Positions 28,071-29,722 of a stretch of 39,415 nt of DNA are shown here, piece after piece (position 1 is the first letter of the stretch; every line of letters begins with the position of its first letter). The notes under the pieces are model-generated. The model was not told where the DNA came from and did not search any database. It saw nothing but the letters and a program-made list of their open reading frames with translations. The stretch lies in the UHGV virus genome UHGV-0176211; one strand, written 5' to 3'. The position numbers and the translations under genes were made by a program. This stretch comes from a virus.

Positions 28071-28179
28071 AGATTCCTCCCGAATAAACTTTGGCGATGC
28101 AATCTCGAAGCCCCTCCTGAGACGGTTGCTTCGGCATTGCATCCCACAGCTTATGTGGTTGGGTGATCTGGCTTTTCAG

Positions 28180-28215
28180 CCACGTAGTCGAGTGTTCGAC
28201 GTTGTTTAAAGAGCC
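28180..28215 (-). promoter_or_regulatory. nutL-like site (boxA plus boxB hairpin)
   Basis: Minus-strand GGCTCTTTAAACAAC, then hairpin GTCGA-ACAC-TCGAC, then TACGT; nearly the same architecture recurs at 29152..29183. Confidence 0.55.
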
Positions 28216-28260
28216 TGCCAGTCTGTTCCGTTTGGCTTCCAGCTTCCTGCTGATGACTAA

Positions 28261-28289
28261 ATAATACGGGACGTAGTTGATTAAGTCAA
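28261..28289 (-). promoter_or_regulatory. PL-like promoter
   Basis: Minus strand TTGACT, 17-nt spacer, TATTAT, upstream of nutL and the N-like gene. Confidence 0.55.
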
Positions 28290-28430
28290 CACAAACACTC
28301 TAAATGTGGTTAGTTTTTTTATAACTCTATGTATTTTATTGATTTATATTTTGGGAAAGAAAGTTGGCGCCAAGTTTTCACCAAAAGTGGTGAAATCCCT
28401 AAACCCTGTAGCCCGTCAAGAAGCTGGCCC

Positions 28431-28692
28431 GTGGTGCAGGAGATTCACCAGGGTGGTGCAGGAGATTCACCAGGGTGGTGCAGGAGATTCACTAGGGTGG
28501 TGCAGGAGATTCACTAGGGGGTGGTGCAGGAGCTGCACCCAGAACCAGTCACTCTTTTGAACCAGTCAATGAACCTAAAAACATTATGTTCGAACATGTC
28601 CGAACAGAGTGTGAAAAAACTCCTGACCGTCACGAAGAAACCGACAAGGCATTCGAGGAAATATTCTGGTGTGCAGGCATGCGGAAAGCCGG
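28431..28692. repeat. Direct-repeat copy A of an origin segment (iterons plus AT-rich flank)
   Basis: Near-identical by eye to 29986..30225 inside the O-like gene, with one extra 22-bp unit. Confidence 0.8.
28434..28538. repeat. Iteron array A (four 22-bp units plus a palindromic fifth)
   Basis: GTGCAGGAGATTCAC core at 28434, 28456, 28478, 28500; palindromic GTGCAGGAGCTGCAC at 28524. Confidence 0.8.
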
Positions 28693-28716
28693 TCTCGGCA
28701 ACCATTAGTTACGTCA

Positions 28717-28734
28717 ATGGCGTTTAAACGCCAT
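28717..28734. promoter_or_regulatory. Perfect 18-bp palindrome, candidate protein-binding site
   Basis: ATGGCGTTTAAACGCCAT; no T-run follows, so not a typical terminator. Confidence 0.3.
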
Positions 28735-28861
28735 AGGAAGCGCTGTAGAGAGATAAACAACTGTCAGACATTAAAATGTACGTGTGGGCGTAAATATTGC
28801 GTCAGAATGCGATTCAGGAGGTTTGGGGTTGGTTCACCAGGATTTGGAGTGTGGTATTTTT

Positions 28862-28895
28862 GCTTGCATTAAAAACGCACGAGATGTACTATAAT
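28862..28895 (+). promoter_or_regulatory. PR-like promoter
   Basis: TTGCAT-like -35 and TATAAT at 28890..28895, about 30 nt upstream of the Cro-like gene. Confidence 0.45.
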
Positions 28896-28924
28896 AGCGT
28901 GGTTACCAATGTTGGGAAGGAAAT

Positions 28925-29140
28925 ATGAACAACCTTAAGAAATATCGAAAGTCAGTGAGCATCAGTCAAACAATACTTGCTAAGGCAGTTGGATGCACAC
29001 AGGGGGCTGTCGGTCATTGGGAAAGTGGTCGTCGCATGCCAGATCTTAAAACATGCCGTGCTCTCGTTGCTTACCTGAACGAGTTAGGCGCAAATGTAAG
29101 TCTTGATGACGTGTTCCCGCCGGAACACAAAGCCGCTTAA
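28925..29140 (+). CDS. Cro-like HTH (XRE family) regulator
   Basis: 71 aa; HTH segment ISQTILAKAVGCTQGAVGHWESGRR; first gene of the rightward operon. Confidence 0.6.
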   Translation: MNNLKKYRKSVSISQTILAKAVGCTQGAVGHWESGRRMPDLKTCRALVAYLNELGANVSLDDVFPPEHKAA

Positions 29141-29151
29141 TAAGCGGGACT

Positions 29152-29183
29152 GCTCTTTGTAACAACGGACATTCGTCCTACGT
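29152..29183 (+). promoter_or_regulatory. nutR-like site
   Basis: GCTCTTTGTAACAAC, then hairpin GGAC-ATTC-GTCC, then TACGT; parallels nutL. Confidence 0.5.
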
Positions 29184-29280
29184 CGCTGAAAAGCGAGTTC
29201 CAAGATATCTGACCAACTAAGGCTATATGCGTTTCCACGCATACCTTTCAACTAACTATTCACTATTGGTGAATTAACAA

Positions 29281-29406
29281 ATGACACAAGCAAGTTACAG
29301 CAAGCCAACACAGCGAGAAATTGATCGCGCAGAAACTGATTTACTCATCAACCTGTCAACGCTTACCCAGCGCGGTCTGGCAAAGATGATTGGCTGTCAT
29401 GAATAG
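29281..29406 (+). CDS. Short ORF, possible truncated cII-like HTH remnant
   Basis: 41 codons ending inside an HTH-like stretch (LSTLTQRGLAKMIGC); sits where cII/c1 lies in lambda/P22. Confidence 0.25.
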   Translation: MTQASYSKPTQREIDRAETDLLINLSTLTQRGLAKMIGCHE

Positions 29407-29433
29407 AAAGCACAAATTACAGGAGAAGACACA

Positions 29434-29688
29434 ATGAGTATGATTCTGATTGAGAAAGCAATGAGAACTAAGGTTGGGAACCCGCGAAGAAAACTGATTC
29501 TGCTTAAACTTGCCGATAACGCCAATGACAATGGCGAATGCTGGTTTTCATATCAGCATATCGCTGACCAGTGCGAGATTAGCAGATCGACAGTAATTGG
29601 TCACATTTTAGCACTGGAAAAGACTGGGGTTTTGAATTTGGAGCCAGGAAGTAACCAGCCGAAGTTTGCTCGCCTGATGCTTAAATAA
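29434..29688 (+). CDS. Stand-alone paralog of the O-like initiator N-terminal domain
   Basis: 84 aa; first ~60 aa nearly identical to the N-terminus of the downstream 256-aa O-like protein, then diverges. Confidence 0.55.
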   Translation: MSMILIEKAMRTKVGNPRRKLILLKLADNANDNGECWFSYQHIADQCEISRSTVIGHILALEKTGVLNLEPGSNQPKFARLMLK

Positions 29689-29722
29689 GCATTAACAAAC
29701 ACAACCAATTGGAGGTGAAAAA

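Follow-up and report, generated by a model that had tools for sequence, protein, structure and literature searches.

Replication-module fragments occupy the repressor slot of a P22-like phage lineage that is probably lytic by natural descent

The viral genome UHGV-0176211, a stretch of 39,415 nucleotides (nt) that is referred to here as the window and that makes up the entire contig NODE_91 of ENA assembly ERZ1034773, carries the early control circuit of a lambdoid phage together with a patch of replication-module fragments in the slot of the repressor gene cI. With a probability of roughly 80%, we regard it as the genome of a phage that is obligately lytic by natural descent from a temperate, P22-like (lambdoid) ancestor. 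An earlier, sequence-only reading of this DNA had offered such a naturally lytic derivative as one of two options, the other being lysogeny under the control of non-canonical components. The former is now supported by the mapped breakpoints, the absence of the lysogeny genes and the natural recurrence of the arrangement, all of which, like the anatomy of the region itself, are directly observed; no positive evidence was found for the latter, which we consider quite improbable.

The window was found to have neither a cI/C2-type repressor between the left and right operators (OL and OR), nor an integrase, an excisionase or an attachment (att) site, nor a full-length CII. At least three separate rearrangements would account for the removal of both the establishment and the maintenance of lysogeny. 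In the first, cI, the PRM promoter, OR3 and half of OR2 would have given way to a 494-bp patch derived from the replication module; in the second, cII would have lost everything beyond codon 41 and become joined to the leader sequence of an O-type gene; in the third, int, xis and att would have been lost between the tailspike terminator and the last gene of the PL operon.

The repressor slot

The nearest immunity regions are those of the Escherichia coli prophages L005 and L006. Homology to these extends at 95% identity across N, nutL and PL/OL up to position 28362 of the window, and restarts at 28857 with 88–89% identity, 14 bp upstream of the cI start codon. Absent from the window are 761 bp, equivalent to positions 1766–2526 of L005, which include the cI open reading frame (ORF; 1817–2512), PRM, OR3 and the left half of OR2. 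In their place, as delimited by the breaks in homology to L005 and L006, lies a non-coding patch of 494 bp (28363–28856). The longest ORF between N and cro is of 84 amino acids (aa), and none of the ORFs in this interval has a Pfam match at E≤0.1, which bears out the earlier claim that no repressor-sized ORF lies between the divergent promoters; likewise, none of the small gap ORFs was identified as a known repressor in the Pfam scan. No reading frame is conserved in the gap between PL and PR, since frameshifting indels distinguish the relatives. A 139-aa ORF called as a gap gene in the relative L008 was rejected on account of these indels and the lack of a Pfam match.

The patch is composed of three parts. 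The first comprises 68 nt (28363–28430), which look like degenerate iterons; for this segment, as for another at 29637–29722, no homologue was found among the compared loci or phage records. The second part contains five perfect 22-bp iterons and about 150 nt to their right, in a layout identical to that of the origin inside the replication gene O. The third part, of 164 nt (28693–28856, plus strand), resembles the O–P intergenic region of the Klebsiella phage phiKp_30, to which it is 76% identical, and runs down to a P-type ribosome-binding site. Thus, the cI slot holds a mosaic of replication-module fragments rather than a simple deletion, a refinement of the earlier description. The spacer fragment also includes a perfect 18-bp palindrome, ATGGCGTTTAAACGCCAT, at 28717–28734, which is present with one mismatch in the O–P intergenic region of phiKp_30.

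The retained early control circuit

On the leftward side, the gene for the antiterminator N (90 aa; 27798–28070, minus strand) was recognized by the Pfam N_peptide profile (E=2e-32), and its product is 100% identical to the N proteins of phage VT2-Sakai and prophage L005. Upstream of it on the same strand, nutL (28169–28214; boxA at 28202–28214 and the boxB hairpin at 28169–28182) aligns with the annotated nutL of VT2-Sakai. PL and OL span 28261–28336 on the minus strand, as identified by a promoter scan and by homology to the annotated PL of VT2-Sakai; PL reads TTGACT-17-TATTAT (28289–28261, minus strand), with 10 of 12 matches to the consensus in the scan. The three left operators, OL_a (28262–28278), OL_b (28287–28303, of which the right half-site is gone) and OL_c (28320–28336), fit the TAC-N5-GTA pattern of the annotated VT2-Sakai operators.

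On the rightward side, the right half of OR2, PR and OR1 (28843–28892, plus strand) were defined by alignment with L005 and the annotated OR/PR of VT2-Sakai: the OR2 half-site lies at 28843–28859, PR has TTGCAT at 28864–28869 and, after 17 nt, TACTAT at 28887–28892, and OR1 lies at 28874–28890. This placement of PR is by homology, the consensus promoter scan having given no PR call. The cro gene (71 aa; 28925–29140, plus strand) matches the HTH_3 profile (E=2e-11), and the 85% identity of its product to VT2-Sakai Cro fits a distinct immunity type. It is followed by nutR (29151–29196, plus strand; boxA at 29151–29165, a hairpin at 29167–29178 and boxB at 29183–29196), which aligns with the annotated VT2-Sakai nutR; the boxB hairpins of nutL and nutR have an identical TGAAAA loop. 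Both halves of the scaffold proposed in the sequence-only reading, namely a leftward PL-like promoter with nutL and an N-like gene and a rightward PR-like promoter with a Cro-like gene and nutR, are accordingly confirmed by the profile matches, the promoter scan (for PL) and the alignments with VT2-Sakai and L005. Lambda vir carries operator point mutations; that the differences between these operators and those of VT2-Sakai are of this vir type was rejected as the main explanation, since OL_a, OL_c and OR1 retain their TAC-N5-GTA half-sites.

Altogether, the elements of the lytic circuit that are retained include PL, PR, N, nutL, nutR, Cro, OL_a, OL_c, OR1, O, P, the origin and Q. By analogy with the established biology of lambda and P22, PL and PR would fire unopposed upon infection, with N acting as the antiterminator at both nut sites; Cro would damp early transcription through the operators that remain (OL_a, OL_c and OR1); O and P would replicate the DNA and Q would turn on the late genes, leading to the lysis of the cell.

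Other lysogeny functions

The cII position is occupied by a remnant of 41 codons (29281–29406, plus strand) that matches positions 1–37 of the 91 positions of the Phage_CII profile (E=1.8e-11). Its stop codon arises at a novel joint, where CATGAAT meets AGAAAG, between the two helices of the helix-turn-helix (HTH) and ahead of the recognition helix, so that cII retains 41 of about 98 codons and has no recognition helix. The joint connects the remnant to a point about 30 nt ahead of an O-type gene, whose own Shine-Dalgarno sequence is kept. Another region where a loss was suspected is the 62-bp junction between the tailspike gene and the PL operon (21367–21428), the expected place of int, xis and att, which holds a hairpin followed by T's. 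The earlier observations on both loci, that the cII position has only a 41-codon ORF ending inside an HTH and that the tailspike stop (21366) lies 62 bp from the first leftward gene, hold good: the first by the Phage_CII match and the joint, and the second by the ORF list, in which the leftward gene occupies 21429–21776.

To search for such genes elsewhere, the contig was queried in all six frames with tblastn, and the non-structural and small gap ORFs were scanned five times against Pfam and once against PHROGs. Two integrases and two excisionases as tblastn queries returned nothing at E<0.4, integrase types unlike these two being covered only by the Pfam scans of ORFs. Five cI proteins matched the HTH of Cro only, whereas three cII proteins and one cIII protein recovered only residues 1–41 of cII and cIII, respectively. 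The Pfam and PHROGs scans likewise revealed no integrase, recombinase, S24 peptidase, partition or protelomerase family. There is also no sign in these scans of a plasmid prophage of the N15 or P1 type, given that partition, protelomerase and plasmid maintenance genes were not found, and no toxin-antitoxin genes were recovered by either the scans or tblastn. Hence, neither a CI-type repressor or integrase elsewhere on the contig nor a small ORF equivalent to a known immunity repressor, the findings that the sequence-only reading had named as speaking against it, emerged from these searches.

Several lysogeny-related parts are still present. The cIII gene (41 aa), together with the lambda cIII RNA thermoregulator, lies at 26522–26660 on the minus strand; the thermoregulator itself (26602–26660) is intact and was detected with the Rfam model Lambda_thermo (RF01804, 88.5 bits), and residues 1–37 of CIII are 89% identical to those of VT2-Sakai. 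With cII, the known partner of cIII, truncated, cIII may have been orphaned; alternatively, it may serve a different function, for example the inhibition of FtsH. The kil gene is also retained. A remnant of the immI region (17613–18024, plus strand) comprises an intact arc (17613–17777), which was identified as an Arc-like repressor by PHROGs, and the C-terminal ~80 aa of the antirepressor (17743–18024), which match phrog_1726 at positions 181–259 of 264 only; mnt is absent. The truncated cII, cIII with its thermoregulator, and arc with the truncated antirepressor are decaying remnants of lysogeny.

Between the antirepressor remnant and the tailspike gene lies a gene for an HNH-AP2 homing-type endonuclease (18153–18656, minus strand), whereas the relative L010 has no HNH gene at this position. 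The window is also unusually rich in antirepressor-type genes with Rha, ANT/KilAC or ORF6N domains (25295–26403, 35326–36347, 37342–38031 and 23108–23773): two are in the PL operon, two full-length genes and a fragment are in the nin region, and one is a PHROGs-only match. These might act on the repressors of resident prophages.

The origin copy, O' and gene O

The second origin copy (28431–28692, plus strand) was delineated by tandem-repeat detection with TRF and a search for the iteron cores, which start at 28434, 28456, 28478, 28500 and 28524. The segment 28452–28692 is 96.7% identical over 242 nt to 29984–30225 inside gene O (E=1e-112); the two copies differ at 8 of the 242 positions and each has unique flanks. 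The gap copy has five iterons and gene O has four, and the relatives have 3, 5 or 6 in their gap arrays. The gap copy also has an A+T-richer stretch, with a modest enrichment (0.60–0.63), and a palindrome (28587–28606); these elements match those of the resident origin. The term partial origin copy, as used in the sequence-only reading, is therefore apt in relation to gene O and inapt in relation to the origin core, of which the whole iteron array, the A+T-richer stretch and the palindrome are present.

Downstream of the cII remnant is an 84-aa ORF (29434–29688, plus strand), denoted O' here, with a match to HTH_36 (E=1.7e-11) that corresponds to a winged-helix DNA-binding domain only. It is 89.6% identical at the nucleotide level to the start of gene O, keeps the native ribosome-binding site and remains homologous to the O gene of phage phi24B until the last residues ahead of the iterons, where it ends; the ORF is intact in all the relatives. 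By this homology it is a truncated O gene with its own ribosome-binding site, which adds to what had been noted earlier for this region. It is followed by the complete O gene (29723–30493, plus strand), which contains the resident origin with four iterons (29988–30071), matches HTH_36 and DnaD_N and has 88% nucleotide identity to phi24B O, and then by the primase-helicase gene P.

At 29556–29577, O' of the window differs from that of its close relatives by six substitutions in 22 nt, and the version in the window is that of its own O gene; this identity makes the stretch look like a gene conversion tract between the duplicates. In most relatives, O' has five non-synonymous changes within 22 nt of a conserved motif. 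This pattern of substitutions suggests that O' is under relaxed constraint.

Illegitimate and homologous recombination most likely left the origin copy and O' behind as scars. O' ends right before the point at which the iterons start in the O gene; the gap fragment, for its part, is made up of the iteron array and the sequence beyond it. The order in the window, namely origin fragment, O–P spacer, OR-cro-cII remnant and N-terminal part of O, is thus a circular permutation of a unit extending from PR to the origin. Lambda dv plasmids and tandem duplications carry a PR-cro-cII-O-ori unit, and the junction of a dv-type circle or of such a duplication would give the element order seen here. Unlike in the dv plasmids, the arrangement here belongs to a full phage genome, not a plasmid, and is followed by a complete second O gene. 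Together, these features suggest a tandem duplication or dv-type circle junction followed by deletions, a path that would need several steps.

Recurrence of the rearrangement

The same architecture is found in 11 further metagenome assemblies, with 97.6–99.3% identity over 28000–29760. The 12 assemblies come from four ENA accession series and bear the naming styles of at least two assemblers. Among the 11 is a MEGAHIT contig of 40,877 bp with high coverage and flag 3, a flag that we take to mark a stand-alone loop. A more distant relative, L043 (positions 1–1429 of a 1,429-bp contig from Logan SRR14598896), is 87% identical and shares the left junction (97.8% over 28341–28430); its three iterons are accompanied by the same spacer fragment and by a 92%-identical Cro, and its N-side flank is of the phiKp_30 type. 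Since its cassette is diverged and lies on a different flank, the rearrangement is older than a fresh mutant and has been moved by recombination among phage backbones.

The junction sequences are absent from 185,579 species-representative genomes of GTDB and from IMG/VR, and the rearranged region is covered by no record among 5,426 complete E. coli genomes, PLSDB and 50,697 phage records. This absence from bacterial genomes and plasmids fits a phage that never resides in the host genome. A scan of metagenomes for the junctions matched only the already-known contigs. Escherichia phage APC_JM3.2, whose record starts inside the same origin sequence, was set aside as an ordinary temperate phage with int and cI. 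A literature search returned no description of this lineage or of phiKp_30.

A lytic lifestyle and the alternatives to it

Four points weigh against the reading of this lineage as obligately lytic. First, the lytic-only phenotype, most likely though it appears, is a prediction from the sequence. Second, several small ORFs that have no assigned function could include a repressor of a kind that may have escaped recognition. Third, about 1.4 kb of the genome are not on this contig and are covered solely by a close relative. Fourth, the cassette has been kept to about 12% divergence on a different flank with O' intact in all copies, which could hint at a function for the patch.

The last point leads to a distinct proposal, under which the origin copy would be no scar but a functional module, either by itself or jointly with O'. 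The cI slot would have been re-used for a selected replication-control or second-origin module with which a phage lacking a repressor starts or paces replication from the divergent early promoters, and the cassette would spread as an alternative "immunity region" allele. Such a module might take the form of a second origin between strong divergent promoters, where negative supercoiling would favor opening; alternatively, it might be an iteron sink which, with a DNA-binding-only O', tunes initiation in the manner of auxiliary iterons in plasmids. The iteron array of the copy is indeed complete and is accompanied by an A+T-richer stretch and a palindrome, in a layout that presumably recalls the lambda origin; the variation in the arrays of close relatives is limited to spacers and unit number and never affects the 15-nt cores; the cassette persists in the 87%-identical relative on its different flank; and in every copy O' still has an open frame and the ribosome-binding site native to it. 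However, the invariance of the cores can be explained by repeat shuffling and gene conversion with the coding origin copy, and gene conversion accounts equally well for the persistence and spread of the cassette. Moreover, the array of L043 is more like the array inside O than the gap array, the substitutions and the gene-conversion-like stretch in O' suggest relaxed constraint, and phiKp_30 has neither cI nor an origin copy. Furthermore, the 242-bp direct repeat would persist without needing a function, because simple recombination would yield a product devoid of PR, cro and the beginning of O; such a product would be lethal, thus blocking repeat loss. We therefore consider a functional role of the copy unlikely, and a selected pacing module spreading as an immunity allele to be similarly doubtful; if true, it would represent a new wiring of lambdoid replication.

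Another alternative retains lysogeny or persistence through non-canonical or borrowed components, for instance via the repressor of a resident prophage acting on the retained operators, homologous recombination into resident prophages driven by the Rad52-like recombinase of the phage itself, or a carrier state. Consistent with such borrowing, OL_a, OL_c and OR1 still have TAC-N5-GTA half-sites, the window encodes an Erf/Rad52-family recombinase (24346–25053), and the four full-length Rha/ANT/ORF6N antirepressor-type genes and a short fragment suggest dealings with the repressors of other phages. As against this, the Cro/operator type has no close counterpart, its best matches being at 88% nucleotide identity in the 5,426 complete E. 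coli genomes and at 85% aa identity in the 50,697 phage records; the junctions never occur in the bacterial genomes or plasmids; and the Pfam/PHROGs scans and tblastn found no integrase, partition or toxin-antitoxin genes. Borrowed lysogeny is hence a rather remote prospect. The suspicion of a false join through the 242-bp origin repeat can practically be dismissed: several short contigs do end inside the repeat, where assemblers struggle, but a true duplication would break them in the same way, and the copies differ at the 8 positions noted above and have unique flanks, the same structure is seen in 12 assemblies of at least two assembler naming styles including the 40,877-bp MEGAHIT contig, and the diverged relative L043 shares the junction.

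Comparison with known phages

Mycobacteriophage D29, as reportedly described by Ford et al. in 1998, is a naturally lytic phage whose repressor gene was removed by a deletion relative to the temperate phage L5. In relation to L5, it may be seen as the closest analogue of the lineage described here: both are close kin of temperate phages, with the repressor gene deleted and the repressor binding sites kept. In contrast to D29, which is lytic in the wild, the window would be lytic by inference, additionally lacks an integrase, an excisionase and an intact cII, which makes its loss of the module more complete, and has had its repressor slot refilled with an origin copy.

Closer to the window in sequence are two isolated phages with P22-like structural genes in which cI has likewise been destroyed by deletion. 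The Klebsiella phage phiKp_30 (LC768498, from sewage) covers 60% of window positions 1–25000 at 94% identity and shares the P gene (98.5%), and the Escherichia phage EC.P3 (PQ657771, from pig-farm waste water) covers 38% of the same interval at 94.5%. phiKp_30 keeps residues 1–34 of cI and the tail of cII, having no integrase and having lost most of cII; EC.P3 keeps residues 1–95 of cI along with int, xis and cII. Unlike the window, neither has an origin copy or O'. The breakpoints differ among the three, indicating that the losses of cI were independent events. P22-like phages thus look to lose lysogeny repeatedly and stepwise, with cI going first, then cII and int, and then the immI genes. 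The deletions map to 683–1233 in the phiKp_30 locus (L002) and 1716–2290 in the EC.P3 locus (L042), and the cI remnant is annotated in neither record.

A lambdoid early circuit without effective repression is also a feature of the clear-plaque (cI-) and virulent mutants of lambda and P22 and of two P22-like phages, UAB_Phi20 and CurroJimenez. UAB_Phi20 was reported to be virulent despite encoding all the lysogeny components (PMC12111858), and CurroJimenez showed no temperate behavior on E. coli K-12, with no obvious defect in its lysogeny components (PMC11990801). The window differs from these two phages and from lambda vir in that the lysogeny genes themselves are absent. A lineage in which the whole lysogeny module is gone is less usual, though not a new kind of thing.

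The lineage offers what is most likely a natural, non-laboratory transition from a temperate to a lytic lifestyle with exact breakpoints in the best-studied phage regulatory circuit. It also bears on lifestyle prediction from metagenomes, where a "lambdoid" or "Lederbergvirus" label is no guarantee of a temperate phage, and on screening for phage therapy. With cIII and its RNA thermometer, arc and the operators still present, it is further relevant to the rate at which orphaned lysogeny parts decay.

Genome type, completeness and other genes

By its gene content, the window represents a near-complete genome of a P22-like (Lederbergvirus) lambdoid podophage. The structural genes are about 94% identical at the nucleotide level to those of phiKp_30, Huey, Sf101 and CUS-3. 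The P22-type structural module was taken to comprise the small terminase, portal, coat, gp4/gp10/gp26, ejection proteins and a tailspike with a P22 head-binding domain; the window has a Sf6_terminase match (Sf6-type small terminase), and both the relatives and the contig record of the window carry annotations for P22_portal, P22_CoatProtein and Head_binding. A lambda-type early circuit is evident from the divergent PL and PR, N with its nut sites, Cro and Q, and the early region is a mosaic of modules like those of Shiga toxin (Stx) phages.

The left end of the contig precedes a T5orf172 gene and the right end lies just past the holin gene, whereas the assemblies of the relatives are of 40.8–40.9 kb. 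In the complete 40,877-bp relative, the portion absent from the window holds only a lysozyme gene, an Rz-type lysis gene and a Rha-family gene. By arithmetic, the remainder of that relative amounts to 11,366 nt, exactly the length of the coat-to-tailspike stretch of the window, and this leaves no room for extra genes.

The T5orf172/MUG113 (GIY-YIG-like) gene (287–772) lies between the lysis genes and a gp49-like gene. In close relatives its position is taken by the Rha-family gene, which marks this slot as a swap site; the gp49-like and T5orf172 proteins are both widespread in prophages. The tailspike (18670–21366) is an 898-aa protein with a P22-type head-binding N-terminus; a query with the 3' end of its gene alone (21000–21366, ~370 nt) gave no DNA match among the 50,697 phage records. 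The P primase-helicase (30601–33507, 968 aa) contains an intein-like insert with Hint and LAGLIDADG domains at about residues 375–700. The P protein of phi24B is of the same length as that of the window, the APC_JM3.2 homologue has 626 aa, and in the relative L039 the gene is split into two ORFs.

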